Below are positions 34,501 through 58,837 of a stretch of 64,000 bases of DNA, piece after piece. The DNA comes from Thermoanaerobaculales bacterium (GTDB lineage Bacteria > Acidobacteriota > Thermoanaerobaculia > Thermoanaerobaculales > Sulfomarinibacteraceae). A model generated the notes under the pieces. It worked only from the letters and a program-made list of their open reading frames with translations. It made no database searches and was not told where the DNA came from. The number at the start of each line of letters is the position of its first letter. Position 1 is the stretch's first letter. A program made the translations under genes and the position numbers. The stretch covers positions 2,405 to 66,404 of the forward strand of contig DAOPQC010000009.1 of NCBI GenBank assembly GCA_035358815.1, read 5' to 3'.

Positions 34501-34627
34501 TCGAGGCCTCCTTGACGGTCACTCTACCAGCCCGGATCCGGGCTCACAAGCTCTTGAGAGCTGGTCTCGGCGGGGCGGTGTGGAATCGACGCGCGATGTG
34601 CCCGATGTCACTGGAGGAGAGGATATA

Positions 34628-34768
34628 GGGGATAGGGAATAGGGGATAGGGGAGAGGGGAGAGGGGAGAGGGAACAGGGGATAGGGGAGAGGGAGTAGGG
34701 GAGAGGGCCTAGCTGCCTTGTGGGGTAGCCATCCTGGCTGCCTTGTGGGGTAGCCATCCTGGCTGCCC
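34628..34768. repeat. Mosaic intergenic repeat locus C (12 G-tracts in GGGGA(T/G)A heptamer array + 25-nt tandem repeat)
   Basis: 34628-34707 holds 12 runs of G3-4 separated by 3-4 nt. 34713-34762 is ctgccttgtggggtagccatcctgg x2 (period 25) plus a partial third unit. Confidence 0.9.
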
Positions 34769-36125: not shown

Positions 36126-36278
36126 GGGAACGGGAACGGGGACGGGAACGACAGCTGGCCGTTGTGGGGTCGCCATCCTGGCTGCCTTGTGGGGTAGCCA
36201 TCCTGGCTGCCCGGAAGCGGGCGCGGGCGAGGGGGCGGGCGGGGGCCCTACCCCCTATTCCCTACATCCCATCCCCTC
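36126..36278. repeat. Mosaic intergenic repeat locus D (alpha G-array, 25-nt tandem, beta G-array, inverted gamma array)
   Basis: gggaacgggaacggggacgggaac at 36126-36149. 36153-36212 is ~95% identical to 34711-34768. ggaagcgggcgcgggcgagggggcgggcggggg at 36213-36245. C-rich ccctaccccctattccctacatcccatcccctc at 36246-36278. Confidence 0.9.
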
Positions 36279-44153: not shown

Positions 44154-45944
44154 TCAGGGGCGCACGAGCCAGCCGGCGGCGGTCCCGTCCTCGAACCCGC
44201 TGCCGAAGATCAGCGAGCCCGGGCCGGAGGGAGTCGGAGTCGGCGGCGGGGTGGGCGTGGCCACCGGCGTGCTGGTCGGCGTGGCGGTGGGCGGTACGGG
44301 CGTCGTCGTCGGAGTCGGGGTGGGAGTGTGGGTCGGCGGCGGCGGGGTGAGTGTGGGTGTGCTGGTCGGCGGCACCGGCGTCGCGGTGTCAGTGGCGGTG
44401 GCAGTGGGTGTCGGGGTGCTGGTCGGCGGCAGCGGCGTCGCCGTGGCGCTTGGGGTCGGCGTGCGGGTCGGTGTGGCGGTCGCGCTGCTGGTCGAGGTCG
44501 GGGTGCGGGTCGGTGTGGCGGTCGGCGGCACCGGCGTCGCTGTGGGGCTCGGCGTCGCCGTGCGGGTGGGCGTCGCCGTGGCGGTCGCGGTGTTGCTCGG
44601 GGTGCGGGTCGGCGTGGGCGTCGCGGTCCGGGTGGGCGTCGGCGTGCTGGTGCGAGTGGGCGTCGCCGTCGGCCCGCTGGTCACCGACAGCTCGAGCCGG
44701 TAGAGCTGGGCGCTGTCGGTGGCGTCGCCGGCGAGCTCGACGAAGTAGGTTCCCGGCCCGCTGGGCAGTGGCACGCTCGGCAGCGCCTCGGGCAGGCCGG
44801 CGCCGTTGGCGTCCGCGAACGCGAGCTCGGTGGTCCCGTTGACGTCGAGCACCCGCAGCGACAGGTCGTGGATGGCGAGCGAGTCGAACGAGCTCCCCGC
44901 GGTGCAGCTGCCGTTCGGGTTCTGGGGGCCGCTCAAGTAGGTCCAGCCGGTCGGCGTGACGGTGATCGAGAGCGAGGCGCCGCTGCCGACGGTGAGGCTG
45001 TAGTCGTCGTAGTCGGAGTCGTCGTCGACCGACAGGTTGTCGATGGTGAGCAGGCCCGTCGGCGTCCCCAGGGGGTACGCCGTGGACGGGTCGTCGTCGT
45101 GCTCGGCGCCGTCGCCGTAGCCGCGGTTGGCGGCCAGGATGTCGTCGTGCTGGGGCCCGTCGAAGGCGCTCGAGTAGTAGGGCTCCATCAGCTTGGTCTG
45201 GTTGACCGGGCAGACATGCTGCAGCCCGAGACCGTGGCCGTGCTCGTGGGCGACCACGTTGCGCAGCCGCAGCGAGTTGCCGGTGGTCACGGAGTAGAAC
45301 GAGTCGCCGGTGTCGATGACCATGTCCCCGACGTCGGGGTAGAAGTTGTAGCCGAGGATGCCGGAGTTGCCGTCGATGGTATGGCCGCCGAAGCGCACGT
45401 CGCCCCGCACGCCGAGTGATCCCGCCGAGTTGACGAAGGCCGCGCCGTCATCGCTCGGCTGGTAGAGGTAGCTGATGCCGGTCAGCTCGCCCCAGCGATC
45501 CAGCACCTGCTGGAGCAGCGCCAGCCAGGTGGCCTCGTCGCCGTAGATCCCGGTCAGGAAGGCGCGCAGGTTGCTTGGCGAGCTCGGCTCACCGGCGTAG
45601 CCGGGGATCGCGGTGCCGTCGGGGACGACGCTCCAGGTCAGGGTGGTGGGGTCGCCCTGGCCGAGCCCGCTGCCGTTGCTGGCCGTGCTCGACCAGCGGT
45701 TGGAGTCCGGGAACTGGTACTCGCCGAGCGGCGGGGCGGAGAGCGAGTGGGTCACCCGGGCCAGGGCGGCCTTCGCGATCGCCTGCTCGACGTACCACTG
45801 CGGGGTGCCGTCCTTGAAGCACAGCGCCGGCGCGGGCGGGGGGCCCGGCTGGGCCGGCGGGCGGTCCGCTGCGGCAGCGCAGGCGGCCGCGAGGAGCATC
45901 GCGATTCCGAGCGCCGCGGGCGCCCCGGGGCGTGCCGTGCTCAT
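44154..45944 (-). CDS. Secreted metzincin (matrixin/M10-like) zinc protease with PPC-like domain and ~150-aa Pro/Thr linker
   Basis: ATG 45944. Signal peptide ...[10 protein letters not shown]. Zinc site [13 protein letters not shown] (HExxHxxGxxH). Pro/Thr repeats. C-terminal tail [19 protein letters not shown]. Confidence 0.8.
44229..44680 (-). repeat. Intragenic low-complexity Pro/Thr (TPTxT) repeat-coding region
   Basis: Encodes [55 protein letters not shown]... The mirror-frame ORF 44065..44703 (GV-rich) is its artefact. Confidence 0.85.
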
Positions 45945-51973: not shown

Positions 51974-52410
51974 GGGGATAGCGATGAGGGGATAGGGGCT
52001 AGGGCCCCTGCCCGCCCGCTGCCGGCTGCACGGACGGCTTCGTTCCCGTTCCCGTTCCCGTGCCCGCGCCGATCCGCCTCCGCGCGCGACGTCGTTCCCG
52101 TTCCCGTTCCCGTTCCCGAACCCGCGCCCGCTTCCGCGCCCGGTTCCGAGCGACGTTTCGCTCCCCTTCCCGTTCCCGTCCCCGTTCCCGATCCCGTGTC
52201 CGCTCCCGCTCGTTCGCTCCGTCCTCGAGAGCGCTTCGCGCCGATTCTCTGGAAGCGCTCCCCGAGGGTGCCACCTTTGGCGATTTCGGGTCCTGAGCAA
52301 TTTGTCAGGAGCATCGTCGTCCCGAAATCGCCAAAGATGGCACGCCCGCGGGAGGCGCTTCCCTCGCTCTCTCCTCGTCCCCGGGGAGCGGAAGCGGGTG
52401 CGGGCGCAGC
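51974..52410. repeat. Mosaic intergenic repeat locus G (gamma G-array, three C-rich hexamer arrays, 113-nt imperfect palindrome, beta G-array)
   Basis: Gamma array at 51974-52004. C-arrays at 52041-52070, 52093-52147 and 52164-52212. Palindrome at 52251-52363 with 23-nt arms (52268-52290 / 52321-52343, 1 mismatch) and apical hairpin tcctga/tcagga. gagcggaagcgggtgcgggcgc at ~52385-52410. Confidence 0.9.
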
Positions 52411-52879: not shown

Positions 52880-54432
52880 CAGCCGCGCTGCTGCTGGGCG
52901 CGGCGCAGCAGGCGCTCGAGCTCGCGCTTGCCGGCCAGCTCCTTGTACATCTGCTTGGCGCGCGGGTTGTCGGGATCCGCGGCGAGAGCCTTCTCGAGCG
53001 CCTTGCGCTCGCGCTCCTGGTTGCGGCGGCGGCGCCAGAACAGCGCCAGCTCGAGCCACGCCTCGACGTGCTCGGGGTCGACCTCGATGGCGCGGCGCAT
53101 CGCCGCCAGGGCGCGATTGGTCCACAGCGGGTTGCGGAGCAGGAGCTGGGCCAGCTTCACCAGCTCTGTGGGTCGGGGGTCGAGCTTGCAGGCGTGCTCG
53201 AGGAGCTGGATCGCGAGGTAGAACTCGCCCTCGCGGACCAGCTCGTCGGCCCGCTTGAGGTTGGCCTCGACGACGGCGCTGCGCGCGCCGACGTCGGCGG
53301 CGGCTCGCTGGGCCGGCTCGGCGAGCCGCTCGCGCTCCTTCTGCACCTCCTGGAGGATCTTGTCGTAGCGCTCACGGCTTCGCCAGTCGGACAGCACCTG
53401 GTGCGCCTCCGTGGCGCGCTCGCAGATCGCCTCCAGCTCGGCGCCGAGGTCCTTGAGGTGTCGCTCCGAAACACGGGCCGGCGAGTACCGCTCCTTGATC
53501 CGCTGCAGGGCCCGATTCACCTCGTCGCGGTCGGCGCCGGGCCGGAGCCCGAGCGCTCCGTAGTGGTCGACGCGCCGGCCTTCCTCGGCAAGCCGCCGGA
53601 TGCTCTGCCGTTCCTGGCGCTGGATCTCGGCGAGCGTCTCCTCCTTCACCGACGGGGTCGCGGCCGGCTGCTCGCCCGGTGCCTGCGGCCGCGCCGGGGC
53701 GGCACGCCGGGTCGCGTCACCGACCGAGACCACGCCGGCCGCGATCAGGGGGTAGAGGGTGGCGATCGCCTGCTCGTCGGGCAGCGCCGAGACCTGGAAC
53801 AGGTCCGAGATCGTCCGCGTGCCCTCGAGGCGGCTCAGCAGGAAGCCCTCGGTCGGGGTGAGGTTGAAGTCCTGCAGCAGGAGGTCGAACTCGCGGGAGC
53901 GCCACACCGTGCGTTCGAGGGAGCCGAGCGCCGCGAGCTTCGCTCGATGGTCGTCGCAGGCGCGGGCCGCGATCAGGATGATCTGCGCGGTGAACAGGTC
54001 GGGCAGGGTGTCAGGCTGTCCCGAGCCCTCCTCGGCGACGTACTCGTAGAACAGGGCCGGCTCCGCCGCCGCTCTCCGGATGATCGCCAGCGTCAGCTCC
54101 TGGAGCTCGCGCTGCAGCACCGCCGCTTCGAGGCTGCCGCGCGCCACCAGGAGATGGCCGAGTGGCGGGGCCTCCTCCCCGCCCTGCGAGAGCAGCGACA
54201 GGGCGCGGTCGTCCTCGCTGATGATGCCGCGGTCCACAAGCCACATCCCGAGCTTTTCGTCCTCGATGCTCGAGCGGGCCGCCCGGATCTCTCCCTTGAC
54301 GAACATGATCTCGCGCCGCGTCCGACTGGTGGCGACGGCGAGGATTCCGGTTGCGGCCTCTCTGGCCAGCCGCGCGAGGTGGTCCGGCAGCGCCGTGCTC
54401 AGCTCGAGCCGCACCACGGAGTCGCCGCTCAT
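52879..54432 (-). CDS. DUF4388-like N-domain / J-domain (DnaJ-like) / TPR protein
   Basis: ATG 54432. N-terminal GILAV....REIMFVKGEIRAA (DUF4388/PATAN-like). The J-domain-like helix pair DHYGALGLRPGADRDEVNRALQRIKERYSP lacks a canonical HPD (has YSP). C-terminal TPR helices. Confidence 0.65.
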   Translation of the reverse strand: MSGDSVVRLELSTALPDHLARLAREAATGILAVATSRTRREIMFVKGEIRAARSSIEDEKLGMWLVDRGIISEDDRALSLLSQGGEEAPPLGHLLVARGSLEAAVLQRELQELTLAIIRRAAAEPALFYEYVAEEGSGQPDTLPDLFTAQIILIAARACDDHRAKLAALGSLERTVWRSREFDLLLQDFNLTPTEGFLLSRLEGTRTISDLFQVSALPDEQAIATLYPLIAAGVVSVGDATRRAAPARPQAPGEQPAATPSVKEETLAEIQRQERQSIRRLAEEGRRVDHYGALGLRPGADRDEVNRALQRIKERYSPARVSERHLKDLGAELEAICERATEAHQVLSDWRSRERYDKILQEVQKERERLAEPAQRAAADVGARSAVVEANLKRADELVREGEFYLAIQLLEHACKLDPRPTELVKLAQLLLRNPLWTNRALAAMRRAIEVDPEHVEAWLELALFWRRRRNQERERKALEKALAADPDNPRAKQMYKELAGKRELERLLRRAQQQRG

Positions 54433-54437
54433 CGCCG

Positions 54438-55580
54438 TCAACCCCCTCCGCTGCCCGCCGCCGCGTCCTCGGTGGGCGACAGCTCGACGGGATGGGGCGT
54501 GAAGCCCTCGAGCATCAGGTGCGCGGGGACGCTGGCGACCGCGCGAGCAGCGGCCTCGCGGCTCGGGAAGTGCCCCCAGATCAGCCGCCAGCACGGGCTG
54601 CCCTCGGCCCCCTCGCTGGCCACTGGTCGCAGGACGTCGGGGTACTGTCGCGCCTTGTTGAGGACGCGCTGCAGCTCTTGCGGCTCGCAGCCCATGTCGA
54701 CCACCAGGCCCCAGTCGCCGGCTGTCGAGGGCGCCTGGGCGGCGCGGTTGGAGCGCAGCCACAGCGCGGTCGCCCCGATGACGATCGCGAGCACCGCTGC
54801 CAGGGCGGCGAGCAGGGCCCAAGCCGGGACGCGCCGGCGCCGGCGCTCCGGGGCGGAAGGAAGCGGCTCCCGCTCCTGCTTCCGCACCGGCTCCGGCACC
54901 GCAGGCTCGGCCGGCGACGCCACCGGGGCCGGCTCGAGCATGCCGGCGGCAACCAGGGCCGCGAGCAGGCTGACAACCTCGCCCTGCCCCTGGGGTGAGC
55001 GACCGGCGATCTCGGCGGCGGTGCGCTGGCCGTTGACCTTGGCAACGATCAGGTCCGCCTCCTCCGACAGCCGAAGCGGCGAGTACAGCTCGAGGAAGTC
55101 GGCGGCCCGGCGCAGCCGGATGTCGAGGTCGGGGAGGATTGCCCGCGTCAGCTGCGGGTCCTGGCTCGACAGCACCAGCTCCACGACCGCGTGGGCGGCA
55201 GAGATGGTCGGCGCATCGGTGCCGGCGACCTCCGAGTCGCTGATCTCGAGCCGGTGCTCGGGGTCGAGCAGCCACGCCGCGAGGGCCTCCTGGACGAGCT
55301 CCTTGACGGTCCCGATCGCGACGGTCTGTGACAGGCCCGGGGCGGCGGCGAGCGCAAGGGCTTCCGCGACGAGGTCGGGGCGTCCAACCGGGCGGCAGCC
55401 GAGGCGGCGGGCAAGCAGGGCCGGGTCCGGTCCCTCGACCGACACGATCTTGCCGCGGGCCAGGCGCAGCACGAGCTCGCCGGTCGAGCCGGAGAGCCGG
55501 ACCTCGCCGGCAGGCCGTCGGGCGAGCCATCGCCCGAGGCGCCAGATCAGCTCGGGATCCCGCATGTCGGACTCCATCAT
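54438..55580 (-). CDS. DUF4388-like N-domain membrane protein with C-terminal SPOR-like domain
   Basis: N-terminal GEVRLSGSTGELVLRLARGKIVSV. Single TM helix (WALLAALAAVLAIVIGATALW). C-terminal beta-alpha-beta block WGLVVDMGCEPQELQRVLNKA...WRLIWGHFPSREAAARA. Confidence 0.5.
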   Translation of the reverse strand: MMESDMRDPELIWRLGRWLARRPAGEVRLSGSTGELVLRLARGKIVSVEGPDPALLARRLGCRPVGRPDLVAEALALAAAPGLSQTVAIGTVKELVQEALAAWLLDPEHRLEISDSEVAGTDAPTISAAHAVVELVLSSQDPQLTRAILPDLDIRLRRAADFLELYSPLRLSEEADLIVAKVNGQRTAAEIAGRSPQGQGEVVSLLAALVAAGMLEPAPVASPAEPAVPEPVRKQEREPLPSAPERRRRRVPAWALLAALAAVLAIVIGATALWLRSNRAAQAPSTAGDWGLVVDMGCEPQELQRVLNKARQYPDVLRPVASEGAEGSPCWRLIWGHFPSREAAARAVASVPAHLMLEGFTPHPVELSPTEDAAAGSGGG

Positions 55581-55631
55581 AAACGGTCTAACGGGCAGGA
55601 GGTATTGCCGGCCTCGTGGCCGGGCGCCTCC

Positions 55632-55660
55632 TTGACAGTCTCGGCAAAGCTTTCTACCAT
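55632..55660 (+). promoter_or_regulatory. Candidate sigma-70 promoter for the tRNA-Val/tRNA-Asp pair
   Basis: TTGACA (55632-37), a 17-nt spacer, then TACCAT (55655-60), ~25 nt upstream of tRNA-Val. Confidence 0.5.
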
Positions 55661-55684
55661 GACCTTCCCAACGGCCAGCCGTTC

Positions 55685-55759
55685 GGGAGGTTAGCTCAGG
55701 GGTAGAGCACCTGCCTTACACGCAGGGAGTCGTGGGTTCAAATCCCCCACCTCCCACCA
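55685..55759 (+). tRNA. tRNA-Val (anticodon TAC)
   Basis: Cloverleaf: acceptor gggaggt/acctccc, D-arm gctcaggggtagagc, anticodon stem cctgc/gcagg with loop ctTACac, T-arm gtggg-ttcaaat-cccac region, encoded CCA. Confidence 0.9.
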
Positions 55760-55780
55760 CCCCTGAGACGGCACGATTGC

Positions 55781-55857
55781 GGGGTCGTAGTTCAGCTGGT
55801 TAGAACGCCGGCCTGTCACGCCGGAGGTCGAGGGTTCGAGTCCCTTCGGCCCCGCCA
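55781..55857 (+). tRNA. tRNA-Asp (anticodon GTC)
   Basis: Acceptor ggggtcg/cggcccc, D-arm gttcagctggttagaac, anticodon stem ccggc/gccgg with loop ctGTCac, T-arm gaggg-ttcgagt-ccctt, discriminator G, encoded CCA. Confidence 0.9.
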
Positions 55858-55872
55858 ACCCAGCCAAACCGA

Positions 55873-55900
55873 GCCGCCCTTCGGGCGGCTTTTCGTTTGT
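55873..55900 (+). terminator. Rho-independent terminator after tRNA-Asp
   Basis: gccgccc-ttc(g)-gggcggc followed by ttttcgtttgt. Confidence 0.75.
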
Positions 55901-56006
55901 CTGGTGGCGGGGCCGAAGGGACTCGGTCACCGCGGAGCCAGCGGGCGGACGTACGCCGCCCACCGCCCTCTCCGGCCCGGCTGACGCCGGGCCTGCGACC
56001 CCCACG
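55886..56006. repeat. 121-nt direct repeat, copy 1 (contains inverted copy of tRNA-Asp 3' end)
   Basis: Base-for-base identical to 56234-56354 (checked by eye over all 121 nt). 55905-55925, tggcggggccgaagggactcg, is the reverse complement of tRNA-Asp 55837-55857. Confidence 0.95.
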
Positions 56007-56078
56007 GCTACGTCCGCACTCCGCTGCCTATCGCGGTGTGCAAGTCCCTTCCCTCGTGACCCCGGCGACCCTGGCGGG

Positions 56079-56130
56079 CGGCTGTTTTCGTTCCGTGGCG
56101 GGGCCTTCGGGACTCGCAGCACCGTCACCT
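56079..56130. repeat. Degenerate middle copy of the tRNA-Asp-derived repeat
   Basis: cggctgttttcgttccgtggcggggccttcgggactcg matches the start of the 121-nt unit, with gaag replaced by ttcg and a different continuation. Confidence 0.7.
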
Positions 56131-56233
56131 GCGCGCTGTCACGGGCAGCCCGCGTTGCGGCCTGCCGGTTCCAGCCTGCGCAGCTGCCGGCGGTGTCGAG
56201 CCCTTCCCTCGTGACCCCGGCGACCCTGGCGGT

Positions 56234-56354
56234 CGGCTTTTCGTTTGTCTGGTGGCGGGGCCGAAGGGACTCGGTCACCGCGGAGCCAGCGGGCGGACGT
56301 ACGCCGCCCACCGCCCTCTCCGGCCCGGCTGACGCCGGGCCTGCGACCCCCACG
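56234..56354. repeat. 121-nt direct repeat, copy 2
   Basis: Identical to 55886-56006 at an offset of 348 nt. Preceded by the 32-nt block 56201-56232, identical to 56046-56077. Confidence 0.95.
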
Positions 56355-56579
56355 CCCTCTGAAACTGCGAATGTGTCCATGTCGGCCCCGGCACGCAATT
56401 GGCGCGAAGGCCCCAGCGATCCACAGGGTCAAGAATCACCGGGTGCGCGAACGCGGCGCAGACCTCCGCCCAAGCCTCCGCACGCACGATCGGGGTCCTC
56501 CTCAACTGTCCGTTCACGGTGTGAGGTCGAGATACCTGAGAATCTCACACTTCAGCCAGACACTCCTTCTGGGGGTGCC

Positions 56580-56939
56580 TCAGGGCTCGCGGCGGAGGCC
56601 GAGCTGGATCGAGATCGCGCGGTCGAGGGCTTCGAGCTCGCCGGCTTCGAGGAGGCCAAGGCGCTTGCTGATGCGGTGCCGGGCAACCGTGCGAAGCTGG
56701 TTGGCGACCGCACGGGAGGGCTTGGCGAGGCCGCTCGACGTCGGGCCGACGCGGCTTTCGTAGGGTCGGAGGGGGCGGTCGGGCAGCGATGTCACGGGCA
56801 CGATCTGGAGCACCGCGTCGAGCCGGCAGGCGACGTCGTTCGAGACGACGACCGCCGGGCGGGTCTTCCGGATCTCTCGACCCTCTGCCGGGTCGAAGCG
56901 GACCAGGACGACGTCGCCTCGGCGGAGCTCGGGGGTCAC
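56580..56939 (-). CDS. mazF: Type II toxin, PemK/MazF-family endoribonuclease
   Basis: RGDVVLVRFDPAEGREIRKTRPAVVVS... and the QIVPVTS pattern. The GTG start overlaps the antitoxin stop (GTGA). Confidence 0.8.
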   Translation of the reverse strand: MTPELRRGDVVLVRFDPAEGREIRKTRPAVVVSNDVACRLDAVLQIVPVTSLPDRPLRPYESRVGPTSSGLAKPSRAVANQLRTVARHRISKRLGLLEAGELEALDRAISIQLGLRREP

Positions 56940-57178
56940 TCGTCGACCTCCGCGTCAGCCGCTTCCCACTCGGCGGCCAGCTCTGCCGCTTCGTCCCGGT
57001 CCTCGGTGTACGCCACCTCGAGCTGTCGCTCGAGCAGCCGGGCGCGGTACTCGCGGACCGCCTCGCACACGACGGCACTGGTGTTCGGGACCTCGTACAA
57101 GAACGTCGCCACATCAGGGTCGACCGTCACGGTGATGCGCTTCTTGCCCACTGCCGGATCCTCCGGTGAGATGATCAT
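56936..57178 (-). CDS. Putative MazE-like/RHH antitoxin
   Basis: 80-aa acidic-tailed protein (KKRITVTVDPDVATFLYE... then a DE-rich C-terminus) translationally coupled to mazF. Start ATG 57178 is uncertain. Confidence 0.6.
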   Translation of the reverse strand: MIISPEDPAVGKKRITVTVDPDVATFLYEVPNTSAVVCEAVREYRARLLERQLEVAYTEDRDEAAELAAEWEAADAEVDE

Positions 57179-57343
57179 AGCATACGAAATGTCATATGAA
57201 CAATACGCACACTGCGATTCCAGCGACGCCATCTGTCCGCCGGCGGGATCGAATGTGAATCGTGGCTGAGGTTCGGCCGGACGGTGGAATGGTCCGAGGC
57301 CGGTACAATGGCCGGGTTTCGAGCCCGTCGTATCGGAGAGGAC

Positions 57344-58837
57344 ATGGAGAAGACCGGTTTCCTGCGCTCGTTCCCCCGCACCTTCTGGGTCGCCAACGTC
57401 ATGGAGCTGTTCGAGCGGGCCGCCTACTACGGCCTCAACTCGGTGTTGGCTGTCTACCTCACGTTGAAGGTCGCCGAGGGCGGGCTCGGGTTCGGCCAGC
57501 AGGCGGTCGGCTTCCTGCAGGGGATCGTCTATGCCGCCACTTACGTGCTGCCGATCCTCGGCGGCGCGCTCGCCGACCGTTACGGCTACCGCAAGATGCT
57601 GATCGTCGCCTTCTCCTTGCTGGCGACCGGTTACTTCGCCGCCGGCCACATGTCGAGCTACGCCCTGGTGTTCCTGTCGCTGCTCGTGATGGCGACCGGC
57701 TCGGGACTGTTCAAGCCGATCATCTCGGGGACCATCGCCCGCACCACCAACGAGAAGACGTCCTCGTTCGGGTTCGGCATCTACTACTGGATGATCAACC
57801 TCGGCGCCTTCCTGGCGCCGCTGGTGGTGAGCTGGCTCAAGGGGTTCTCGTGGCGGTACGTGTTCACCGCCTCGGCGGCCTACTGCGCGGCGATGCTGCT
57901 GCCCGCCCTGTTCGTCTACACCGAGCCGCCGAAGCCGGAGAGCCGCAAGACCTTGAAGGAGGTGCTCGGCGGCGCCGCCGAGGTGCTGGGCGATGCCCGC
58001 TTCATGCTCATGATCGTGGTCTACTCCGGGTTCTGGATCCTCTACTTCCAGAACTTCGGGTCGGTGCTGTGGTACCTGCGCGACTTCGTCGACCGCGAGC
58101 CGGTGAGCGCCGCGGTGACCGGGTTGCTCGCCGCGATCGGGCTCGACGTCCGCTTCACCTTTGACGCCGAGCACGTCACCGTCATCAACGCCGGCACCAT
58201 CATCCTGCTCCAGGTGCTGGTGAGCCGCCTGGTCGCCAACCGCAAGGCGCTGCCGACCATGGTGACCGGCATGGCGATGGGAGCCGTGGGCTTCGTTCTG
58301 CTCGCGAGCTCCTTCAACCCGTGGGTGTTCATCCTCGGCATCGCGGTGTTCTCGATCGGCGAGATGACCGCCCACCCCAAGTACTACAGCTTCGTCGGGC
58401 TGGTGGCGCCCGCCGACCGCAAGGCGGTCTACATGGGCTACGCCTTCCTCTACGGCGTGTTCGGCTCGTTGCTCGGCTCGAACCTCGGCGCCTTCCTCTA
58501 CGAGCGGATGCTGGCCCCGGTGGTCGGGACCGAGGCGGCGGCCGGCCGCACCACCCTGTTCTGGACCTTGTTCGCCGTGCTCGACGTGATCGCAGTGGTG
58601 GGGCTGATCCTGTTTGCGCGGGCCTTCGGCGAGGACACCCCCGACACCCGGCGACGGGCGCGCAGCGCCATGTTCGGCGTCTACGGGCTGATCCTGCTGC
58701 TCGGCCTCGCATTCGCAGTCTTCGCCTTCACCTCGGACCCGATCCAGGTCCGCACTGCGGTGCAGTCCCTGATCTTCCTCGCCCTGGGCGGCGGCGGGCT
58801 CGCGGTGAACGCCCGCGGCGGTCGCAGCGCGAGCTGA
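57344..58837 (+). CDS. Proton-dependent oligopeptide transporter (POT/PTR2) family MFS
   Basis: ATG 57344 follows ggagagg. Signature ELFERAAYYG (ExxERFxYY). GGALADRYGYRK. 12-14 TM profile. Confidence 0.85.
   Translation: MEKTGFLRSFPRTFWVANVMELFERAAYYGLNSVLAVYLTLKVAEGGLGFGQQAVGFLQGIVYAATYVLPILGGALADRYGYRKMLIVAFSLLATGYFAAGHMSSYALVFLSLLVMATGSGLFKPIISGTIARTTNEKTSSFGFGIYYWMINLGAFLAPLVVSWLKGFSWRYVFTASAAYCAAMLLPALFVYTEPPKPESRKTLKEVLGGAAEVLGDARFMLMIVVYSGFWILYFQNFGSVLWYLRDFVDREPVSAAVTGLLAAIGLDVRFTFDAEHVTVINAGTIILLQVLVSRLVANRKALPTMVTGMAMGAVGFVLLASSFNPWVFILGIAVFSIGEMTAHPKYYSFVGLVAPADRKAVYMGYAFLYGVFGSLLGSNLGAFLYERMLAPVVGTEAAAGRTTLFWTLFAVLDVIAVVGLILFARAFGEDTPDTRRRARSAMFGVYGLILLLGLAFAVFAFTSDPIQVRTAVQSLIFLALGGGGLAVNARGGRSAS

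Follow-up and report, generated by a model that had tools for sequence, protein, structure and literature searches.

What produced the repeats that follow the tRNA-Asp gene in a 64,000-nt stretch of a Thermoanaerobaculales genome (contig DAOPQC010000009.1, the whole stretch being referred to here as the window)? In the initial annotation they were described as a tandem array seeded by the tRNA gene, which would make the GC-rich structured segment of each unit a by-product of local tRNA-Asp duplication. The latter view could not be upheld, as the segment was found to belong to a dispersed family of hairpins, here termed E, whose members also lie beside no fewer than six other tRNA species, at sites with no tRNA and inside open reading frames (ORFs) for transposases. 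The array may well consist of copies of a non-autonomous, structure-dependent mobile DNA element, similar to miniature inverted-repeat transposable elements (MITEs) and palindrome-associated transposable elements (PATEs), which would target the T-loop of tRNA genes and would have been expanded locally by unequal recombination. In kind, such an element would be a palindromic non-autonomous mobile repeat, unusual in its T-loop targeting, in having flanks copied from a tRNA 3' end and in its conserved apex.

Organization of the Array

Sequence comparison across the window showed that 55886-56006 and 56234-56354 are exactly identical over 121 nt, as annotated initially, and that this repeat pair (X and X') stretches to 125 nt with one mismatch (55882-56006 versus 56230-56354) at a spacing of 348 nt. 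The second pair of exact 32-nt blocks that had been pointed out is also present, being the first part of a 41-nt match of 95% identity (56046-56086 versus 56201-56241). The last 21 nt of the tRNA-Asp gene (CGAGTCCCTTCGGCCCCGCCA) correspond to tRNA positions 56-76, from C56 in the T-loop through CCA76. The reverse complement of this sequence occurs without mismatch at 55905-55925 and 56253-56273 and with three mismatches at 56096-56116, giving four matches to the 21-mer in the window against a chance expectation of 0.01. No further occurrence of either the 121-mer or the 21-mer was found elsewhere in the window.

The inverted copies of the tRNA-Asp 3' end are spaced by 191 and 157 nt, which agrees with the lengths of 192 and 156 nt given earlier for the first two of three tandem units. 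The order given for each unit, namely T-arm fragment, terminator-like spacer, inverted tRNA 3' end and structured GC-rich segment, holds as well, with the first unit using the real tRNA gene. The third unit is present, but has only the left half of E. The features of the array are as follows (R1 is a covariance model of E, introduced below, and loci other than the window are cited by their L numbers).

55685-55759, plus strand: tRNA-Val (TAC), from ARAGORN and the Rfam tRNA model (67.9 bits)
55781-55857, plus strand: intact tRNA-Asp (GTC), from ARAGORN and Rfam (71.3 bits); 55837-55857 (C56-A76) is the copied sequence
55858-55904, plus strand: spacer 1, 47 nt, containing the rho-independent terminator of the tRNA operon, with a stem-loop at 55871-55891 followed by TTTTCGTTTG
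55882-56006, plus strand: repeat X, 125 nt, which together with X' forms the substrates of the 348-bp duplication and deletion
55905-55925, minus strand: inverted copy 1 of the tRNA-Asp 3' end, 21/21, a perfect 21-bp inverted repeat with 55837-55857 around the terminator
55926-56040, plus strand: complete type-1 hairpin element E, from R1 (122.8 bits, E = 3e-21, over 55913-56049), its fold and the covariation of the family
56041-56051, plus strand: direct T-loop/T-stem fragment AAGTCCCTTCC, a degenerate tRNA-Asp copy from position 56, which closes the hairpin base with the inverted copy
56052-56095, plus strand: spacer 2, terminator-like GGCGGGCGGCTGTTTTCGTT, from reading of the sequence; homologous to spacer 3 and conserved in L037
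56096-56116, minus strand: inverted copy 2 of the tRNA-Asp 3' end, 18/21, with the central GAA flipped to TTC, a variant also seen in L031 and L083
56117-56197, plus strand: type-2 hairpin module (R1 score of 15 bits, not significant), conserved in L037, L083, L085 and L086
56198-56206, plus strand: direct T-arm fragment 2, with the sequence GAGCCCTTC; sister species align up to 56206
56207-56252, plus strand: spacer 3, its 5' part like spacer 2 and its 3' part like spacer 1, with a terminator-like site at 56221-56235
56230-56354, plus strand: repeat X', 124/125 against X with the last 121 nt exact; lineage-specific and absent in sister species
56253-56273, minus strand: inverted copy 3 of the tRNA-Asp 3' end, 21/21, from repeat comparison and motif scan
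56274-56354, plus strand: truncated E, left arm and apex only, cut within the conserved motif GACCCCCACG, right arm absent (R1 score of 52 bits)

Terminator-like hairpins with T tracts were identified at 55871-55891 and 56221-56235 by a terminator scan, and a terminator-bearing spacer of 38-52 nt occupies the position of spacer 1 in seven other species. The tRNA-Val and tRNA-Asp pair is kept in all orthologous loci. All full-length copies of the tRNA end within the array are inverted, the direct copies being only 9-11 nt long; the counterpart of direct fragment 2 is CGAGCCCCTTCGGGCCCGCAG in L037 and a perfect 21-nt direct copy in L086. No distal direct copy of the tRNA-Asp 3' end which might bound an island was found within the 8 kb available in the window.

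The E of unit 1 forms a long bulged hairpin in which the C-rich apex motifs CCCTCTCC and GCGACCCCCACGGC are conserved and the terminal GC hairpin is variable. The junction at its right-hand side, where the end of E is followed by C56 and the rest of a tRNA 3' end, recurs across the E family.

A Dispersed Family of Covarying Hairpins

One genome per species was scanned for a tRNA-Asp end followed within 30-60 nt by its inverted copy, with a match of 14 nt required. Seven species were obtained, all represented by metagenome-assembled genomes (MAGs) of Acidobacteriota that are labelled Holophagae or Thermoanaerobaculia or are unclassified. Each of them matches over the full 21 nt, with limits exactly at C56 and CCA, and each carries E after the inverted copy even though E was not part of the query. 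In these species E is a hairpin of ~115 nt with AGCGGGYGG, CCCTCTCC, a variable GC hairpin and CGACCCCCNCGGC, and its stems differ in a compensatory manner. A second scan, of metagenomes, used two E motifs and no tRNA sequence as query and returned 60 loci, ~45 of them distinct with differing flanks, from Acidobacteriota metagenomes and MAGs. The family is non-coding, with an element length of 130-137 nt and a canonical form of ~131 nt. The initial annotation had set its tRNA-based reading against that of a widespread and stable array with no tie to tRNA genes; the family did prove to be widespread, but its link to tRNA genes is strong (see below).

Alignment of 40 distinct copies of E gave a single long bulged hairpin with 28 consensus pairs. 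Compensatory double changes were found at 19 of these pairs, compared with 11.7 in shuffled alignments, and standard pairs make up 94.4% of the cells at paired positions as opposed to 80.6% after shuffling and 31-51% when the partners are slid. Cells with double changes number 138 against 38.5 after shuffling, and none of 500 shuffles reached the observed values. The loop motifs CCCUCUCC and GACCCCC are nearly invariant. One-sided changes of the G-U type are few (~10), so that change has run largely from one Watson-Crick pair to another, which fits a DNA palindrome better than an RNA.

The 40-copy alignment was used to build the covariance model R1, which picked up further copies of E within the fetched loci. 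Apart from the complete element of unit 1, the only other significant match of R1 in the window is the 52-bit one over 56261-56383, in which the pairs of the right arm are unmatched; the third copy is therefore half an element, cut at 56354 inside the apex. A search of Rfam, with the whole window at gathering thresholds and the region itself at E <= 5, returned only the two tRNAs and no family on E, and blastn of the E of unit 1 against plasmid and phage collections gave no match. The E family is previously undescribed, in that neither Rfam, nor the collections of phages and plasmids, nor the literature that could be searched yielded a description of it.

Several weak matches were set aside. 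The low-scoring Rfam matches mir-2861 and sot2652 were judged to be due to chance, as were three matches of the E motifs in a scan of viral contigs, which have no other similarity to the element.

The strong covariation and near-invariant loop motifs would also fit a structured non-coding RNA family, either a small RNA with C-rich loops that bind Shine-Dalgarno-like sites or one in which the 21-nt arm pairs with or mimics the tRNA 3' end. The complementarity to tRNA-Asp starts from exactly CCA and is perfect over 21 nt in many species, E is conserved at the orthologous tRNA-Asp locus over deep divergence, and at loci with a direct tRNA fragment E is placed after the tRNA but ahead of the next terminator-like hairpin, so that co-transcription would be expected. 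However, no Rfam family matches E even at E <= 5, and a scan of the array found no promoter-like site other than that of the tRNA, while the E of unit 1 sits after a good terminator. E also occurs in both orientations relative to the tRNA (L036, L041, L072 and unit 3 of L014), it interrupts ORFs, truncated copies persist, and its compensatory changes almost never pass through G-U pairs. Comparison of the two strands was not decisive, the counts of G-U and A-C at the consensus pairs being balanced. An RNA family is thus regarded as improbable.

Other RNA-based candidates were rejected. Comparison of minimum free energies, in which 38 of 40 copies fold better as the G-rich strand, was discarded as evidence for the transcribed strand, as this is expected from composition. 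A tRNA-like minihelix or transfer-messenger RNA (tmRNA)-like RNA on the minus strand, ending in ...GCCA, was dismissed because most copies lack a local T-arm and 5' acceptor strand; on that strand of the array, ARAGORN detected neither tRNA or tmRNA genes nor permuted ones. The idea of a TnpB/omega-RNA scaffold guided by the tRNA end was likewise discarded, since no remnant of tnpB is present, E consists of one long hairpin and the intact tRNA lies upstream.

Association with tRNA Genes and Insertion into ORFs

tRNA genes, as identified by ARAGORN, adjoin about half of the E loci and comprise Asp, Leu (CAG, CAA, TAA), Ala, Lys, Pro and Met. The right end of E abuts the C56...CCA segment of the adjoining tRNA or a close variant of it. 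Four arrangements were distinguished. In arrangement A (direct fragment), found 3' of intact Leu-CAG, Leu-CAA, Leu-TAA, Ala-CGC and Lys-UUU genes and of Pro-like fragments, a short spacer is followed by a direct copy of the 5' strand of the T-stem ending in ...GGTT, a short GC hairpin, E and a direct C56-CCA copy. This amounts to a tRNA 3' fragment broken at 55/56, which measures 30-50 nt in L029 and L075; the unit is present in tandem in L053. In arrangement B (inverted flank), the intact tRNA is followed by a terminator spacer, an inverted 3'-end copy, E without the short GC hairpin and a direct copy. This was found at Asp (the window, L013-L019, L031, L037, L046 and L068) and at Pro (L074, L078 and L054), with the direct copy full-length in Pro and 9-12 nt long or internally deleted in Asp. 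In arrangement C, E is convergent with tRNA-Met (L036, L041 and L072). In arrangement D there is no tRNA, and this group includes three different positions in genes for IS91-like transposases of the Y2 HUH type.

Insertions into ORFs were located, in locus coordinates and in the orientation of E, at ~776-911 in L025, ~254-388 in L049 and ~4300-4434 in L073. Deletion of the 131-nt element from L025 restores a continuous IS91-like transposase frame (...ERTELLLSWRRTGFSVHN...; ...LLSDERTELLLSWRRTGFSVHN...), and in L049 an element of 130 nt occupies another position in an IS91-like transposase gene. Since ORFs are interrupted by defined inserts of 130-131 nt, E is a discrete mobile DNA insertion. 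The ends of E are (R)CTCGCG... on the left and ...GGTGAGTN on the right. Canonical copies have a left flank ending in ...GTT (RGTT) at ~11 of 17 distinct sites, and ...GGYGAGKN as their right end. GAGTT is present on both sides of the insertions in L025 and L049, whereas the flanks at tRNA sites differ from each other (GGGTT ... GAGTG). Hairpins are present at both ends of the canonical element, and no convincing terminal inverted repeats were found in E. The T-loop of a tRNA suits the element, as the preferred RGTT left flank is present at G53-T54-T55 of every tRNA gene.

An IS91 element was considered as the mobiliser, with GTTC in the T-loop as its target. This is not supported, because the junction is one base off (TT/C, not TTC/) and because E interrupts IS91-like genes and does not lie at their ends. 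The enrichment of E in genes for rolling-circle transposases may reflect a preference for single-stranded DNA.

As complementarity to a tRNA is also the mark of a primer-binding site, the inverted 21-mer could be taken as such a site for tRNA-Asp, the unit being a small module akin to a retroelement and copied by a reverse transcriptase whose gene lies elsewhere. In retroviral primer-binding sites the complementarity runs from the CCA end of the tRNA into the T-loop. The complementarity at the array has the same limits, starting exactly at CCA and ending in the T-loop, and this also applies to tRNA-Pro (L074 and L078). However, most family members have a direct fragment and no inverted copy, and the inverted copy degenerates freely in L085, L086 and L088. 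No reverse transcriptase was detected in the ORFs flanking the array or among the genes called on related contigs, and a retroelement is held to be a very remote prospect.

Further observations were made at these loci. At Leu, Ala and Lys loci the copy of the tRNA 3' end is succeeded by a conserved hairpin (GGCTTCGTTCTC...GAGAACGAAGCC); it is found at ~285-330 and ~2790-2835 in L024 and directly past the tRNA-end copy in L040, L048, L061 and L082. The sequence TGCCACGGCG and repeats of GGCGACTTGTCACGGCG lie 3' of this hairpin and look like protein-binding repeats or a second repeat family; none of the explanations discussed here accounts for them. In L075 (4980-5157), the tRNA-Leu fragment interrupted by E reaches back to the anticodon stem, 29 nt before the break in the T-loop, and the two halves of E resemble two alleles (the left that of L044, the right that of L059), as would be seen in a recombinant or an assembly chimera.

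Variation among Assemblies and Sister Species

Two perfect 121-nt copies in a short-read metagenome assembly might arise from misassembly, and contigs do break at this repeat; a purely local tandem duplication of the region downstream of tRNA-Asp, with no wider family, would look similar. Orthologous loci were collected by look-up of the flanking proteins across independent assemblies (JGI, NCBI MAGs and ENA). The two-copy array was present in seven of these (L001, L003-L006, L008 and L010), three contigs end inside the repeat (L002, L009 and L012), and two assemblies (L007 and L011) carry an allele exactly 348 bp shorter in which one copy is retained. Compared with the window, two NCBI MAGs (GCA_035417745.1 and GCA_029564855.1) are 100% identical over 11.4 kb and the remaining assemblies of the same locus 97.3-99.96% identical. 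The array is not an assembly artefact, because seven independent assemblies agree on it and two carry the deletion allele. With the hairpin at ~45 other loci and units 1 and 2 present in sister species, an artefact or a local event without a wider family is scarcely credible.

The sole E left in the short allele is the truncated one abutting mazEF. As the sister species have the complete unit 1, deletion between the 125-nt copies X and X' is the best explanation of this allele.

Three sister loci are 94% (L031) and 88% (L037 and L046) identical to the window. Their alignment with it runs from upstream through units 1 and 2 to 56206 (56099 in L031) and picks up again only at 57320, within the POT transporter gene. 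They lack X' and mazEF, and L037 has a Ser/Thr-kinase gene where the window has unit 3 and mazEF. Units 1 and 2, being shared with the sister species, are therefore ancestral, whereas unit 3 and mazEF are specific to the lineage of the window. The recent origin claimed in the initial annotation for the outer copies is borne out by this comparison and by the presence of the 348-bp deletion allele in the population.

Identity to L037 is uneven along the locus, amounting to 87.8% at the nucleotide and 75% at the protein level upstream of and through the shared part of the array (53177-56206) and to 93.1% and 96%, respectively, in the downstream POT gene (57320-58287). This difference in divergence on either side suggests a recombination breakpoint at the array.

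Age and Recurrent Amplification at tRNA-Asp Loci

All Asp loci have, in synteny upstream of tRNA-Val, the gene for a 380-aa protein with 45-94% identity. A hairpin past the tRNA-Asp terminator is present in relatives whose 380-aa protein is 72% (L083), 63% (L084), 52% (L085), 46% (L086) and 45% (L088) identical to that of the window, and it is of type 1, type 2 or a third variant. In L087 and L089 (45%) the site is empty, with only tRNA-Asp and its terminator.

Tandem arrays have arisen independently at the tRNA-Asp locus in at least five species. The window has periods of 191, 157 and 348 nt; L086 has a period of 164-165 nt with units ~100% identical, L018 one of 205 nt (98%), L014 one of 164 nt (91%) and L084 one of ~120 nt. 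The arm that is perfect also differs: it is the inverted copy in the window group and the direct copy in L086, in which the inverted one is degenerate. Direct repeats of a tRNA 3' end which bound a stretch of DNA were found in L024 (2.6 kb apart), L072 and L086.

The middle unit had been annotated as degenerate. It instead carries a separate hairpin type which follows the inverted tRNA-Asp end in L037, L083, L085 and L086 as well as in the window (five species), with conserved sequence and compensatory changes at seven pairs. In L086 the type-2 unit is present 3.5 times and runs from a terminator spacer through a degenerate inverted copy and the type-2 hairpin to a direct tRNA end that is perfect over 21 nt. 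In L083 a type-2 unit precedes the type-1 unit. As this hairpin is conserved in other species and amplified in L086, the middle unit is a second member of the system and not a decayed E.

Proposed Origin of the Array

On the reading of E as a mobile element, the canonical element of ~131 nt would consist of a short left-end GC hairpin together with E itself, with its near-invariant C-rich apex and freely covarying stems. It would insert 3' of a short ...RGTT, most commonly at G53-T54-T55/C56 in the T-loop of a tRNA gene, and such insertion at 55/56 would explain why E usually abuts a local C56-CCA copy of the tRNA 3' end. As regards the chemistry, a single-strand hairpin may be recognised by an HUH-type or other recombinase acting in trans. 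The tRNA-Asp form would be an old, fixed one without the left GC hairpin, in which the left flank has probably become the inverted complement of the tRNA 3' end, so that the palindrome would extend into tRNA-derived sequence.

The resulting module of terminator spacer, inverted 3' end, hairpin and direct T-arm piece would then grow and shrink by unequal homologous recombination. Such recombination between units predicts a hybrid spacer, and spacer 3 is one, made up of parts like spacers 2 and 1. Unit 3 would be a recent partial re-duplication of unit 1, truncated at the start of the segment bearing mazEF, and recombination between the 125-nt copies would produce the 348-bp deletion allele seen in the population. 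Template switching at quasi-palindromes is an established mutagenic process. It may have kept the inverted copy at 21/21 through correction of the quasi-palindrome formed by tRNA, terminator and inverted copy against the constrained tRNA arm, and the flip of GAA to TTC in unit 2, L031 and L083 would be its signature.

Several observations weigh against this proposal. No transposase or recombinase is tied to E, and clear terminal inverted repeats are absent from it. The GAGTT on either side of two insertions might reflect duplication of the target or preference for it, or might belong to the element. Simple insertion does not account for the split tRNA 3' fragment always lying 3' of an intact copy of the same tRNA, nor for the conserved hairpin and the motif TGCCACGGCGACTTGTCACGGCG after the tRNA fragment at Leu, Ala and Lys loci. 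In addition, the apex of E is conserved at the orthologous tRNA-Asp locus though the flanking protein is only 45-55% identical, and conservation across such deep divergence points to continuing selection or replacement and not to a dead fossil. Finally, the origin of the inverted copy is itself an inference.

If the proposal is true, a phylum that is abundant but has received little study would harbour a so far undescribed family of mobile repeats that depend on structure and target the T-loop, the best-conserved short stretch in any tRNA gene. Such a family would explain the intergenic stretches after tRNA genes which break assemblies, the length variation among strains and the variable toxin-antitoxin cargo adjoining them. 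It would also provide a clean natural case of a quasi-palindrome held perfect against a selectively constrained tRNA arm. The recognising enzyme should be findable by phylogenetic profiling, because the element is small, its apex sharply defined and its junctions clear.

Comparison with Known Mobile and Repetitive Elements

E resembles MITEs and PATEs, the latter derived from insertion sequences of the IS200/IS605 type, in being short, non-coding, multi-copy and present as discrete insertions which interrupt genes, and in that it has hairpins at or close to its two ends, inserts beside a short favoured motif (...RGTT) and is conserved in structure more than in sequence. PATEs of this type are also marked by insertion 3' of a fixed motif of 4-5 nt with no duplication of the target and by a cognate Y1 HUH transposase in the genome. 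E differs in lacking convincing terminal inverted repeats and a known partner transposase, in that the apex and not the ends is most conserved, in favouring the T-loop of tRNA-gene 3' fragments, and in that the palindrome of its fixed form enters the inverted tRNA end.

Repetitive extragenic palindromic (REP) elements and the REPINs formed by pairs of them are also GC-rich intergenic hairpins of ~100 nt, often placed after terminators or between convergent genes, in clusters and tandem arrays and with long persistence. They are reportedly mobilised by RAYT transposases. A REPIN, however, consists of two inverted short REPs, of 20-40 nt and with a GTAG-type 5' motif, and a poorly conserved loop, whereas E is a single long hairpin with a conserved apex, and an association with tRNAs is not a feature of REPs. 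No RAYT gene was seen in the sequences examined.

Integrative elements that target tRNA genes are said to use distinct sublocations within these genes, and accretion of cis-mobilizable elements with integrative and conjugative elements has reportedly been described. The E loci share with them copies of the tRNA 3' end from the T-loop on, arrays directly past an intact tRNA, variable accessory cargo such as toxin-antitoxin genes, and integrase-free elements for which mobilisation in trans is conceivable. At the E loci examined, on the other hand, there is no integrase, a conserved hairpin of 115 nt splits the tRNA fragment at 55/56, the units are just 150-350 nt long and the hairpin is also found free of any tRNA; in the window, the tRNA-end copies are inverted.

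The attC sites of integrons and the attP hairpin of CTX phage are reportedly recombined as folded single strands. E is likewise an imperfect hairpin in their range of 60-140 nt, with conserved structure, variable stems and a variable terminal hairpin, a junction at the hairpin base and an inverted target-like pair beside a restored target. It differs in having no R-box consensus (RYYYAAC/GTTRRRY) and in its highly conserved apex, and its docking site would be a tRNA gene. Dependence on IntI or Xer is a property of the known sites. Overall, E behaves most like a MITE, PATE or REPIN, although several features that define these, such as a REP doublet, are not seen in it, and neither its sequence nor its gene content is that of an integron or of a classical island that targets tRNA genes.

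Neighbouring Genes and Possible Cassettes

On its right-hand side the array is bordered by the following.

56355-57319, minus strand: lineage-specific segment with mazF and an 80-aa partner, from Pfam (PemK), gene calls and comparison with L037
57284-58837, plus strand: gene for a POT/PTR2-family transporter (Pfam), the conserved right-hand edge of the variable region, with orthologues in L037, L070 and L083

The initial annotation was correct in that mazEF follows the array and that no integrase accompanies it. MazF (PemK family, E = 9e-23 in Pfam) is encoded at 56580-56939 on the minus strand. The 80-aa protein (56936-57178, minus strand) is encoded upstream of mazF and overlaps it, which is the position of an antitoxin, and had no Pfam match at E <= 0.01. 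The genes upstream of the array encode the conserved 380-aa protein, a PatA_N/TPR protein and an NYN_YacP protein. No integrase, be it of the tyrosine or serine type or IntI, was found in the ORFs flanking the array, among the genes called on related contigs or at the ~60 loci examined, and neither a reverse transcriptase nor, besides the interrupted IS91-like genes, a transposase adjoins E at these loci.

Where E is joined to a tRNA end, the neighbouring genes are typically accessory, often of toxin-antitoxin type, and differ between close relatives. They include PemK/MazF with an RHH or unassigned partner (the window and L081), BrnT/BrnA (L029 and L047), PIN and AbiEii-like nucleotidyltransferases (L024) and an AAA_14/DUF4143 ATPase (L072).

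Such neighbours would also be expected if E and the tRNA 3'-end copy together formed a folded single-strand recombination site like attC or the CTX-phage attP, the arrays being tandem accretions of cassettes, empty or with cargo, and mazEF such cargo. Small circular units or cassettes would then integrate at the T-loop or 3' end of the tRNA. The hairpin base mirrors the tRNA gene from C56 as a duplex, which extends for ~10 bp at Asp and for all 21 bp at Pro (L074 and L078), and the succession of tRNA, spacer, inverted copy, hairpin and direct copy would match the topology predicted for integration of a single-strand hairpin by analogy with the CTX-phage mechanism, from which the prediction derives. 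L024 has the order tRNA-Leu, E-core, ORF, E-core, ORF, core, units in L072 and L086 are flanked by direct repeats of the tRNA end and terminator, and E shares with attC a variable terminal hairpin and conserved unpaired bases. Against this, E occurs alone, with neither tRNA core nor cargo, in ORFs and at many non-tRNA sites, so that the hairpin is separable from the tRNA piece. The lack of an adjoining integrase at all of the ~60 loci also speaks against a recombination site, as does the R-box GTTRRRY, which by eye is unmatched by the T-loop GTTCGAG or the ends of E, and unequal crossing-over explains the tandem arrays equally well. This explanation is accordingly rated as unlikely, though it fits the topology of arrangement B, arrays like that of L024 and the variable cargo.

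A more specific form of the same idea, in which E and the tRNA end would constitute a new type of folded site whose recombinase docks on the universally conserved T-loop of tRNA genes, and the arrays an integron-like platform without adjacent integrase which captures small cassettes such as toxin-antitoxin pairs, is decidedly doubtful. If true, it would mean that cassettes are shuffled downstream of tRNA genes in Acidobacteriota by such a platform.

Other Repeats

Further repeats were noted away from the array. About 19 CGTTCC hexamers (GGAACG on the other strand) are present at 52093-52239 of the window, with similar runs of GGGAACG near the L084 array and a related GC-rich hexamer repeated in L026. 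At 34616-34767, ~6.6 copies of a G-rich tandem unit, GGAGAGGGGATAGG, are followed directly by 2.4 copies of a 25-nt repeat, CCTGGCTGCCTTGTGGGGTAGCCAT, which occurs again 1.4 kb away (36162-36211, 2.0 copies). Imperfect tandem repeats with periods of 24-99 nt, very GC-rich and with GTCGGCG/GTGGCG motifs, extend over 44216-44671 and probably represent a repetitive coding region.

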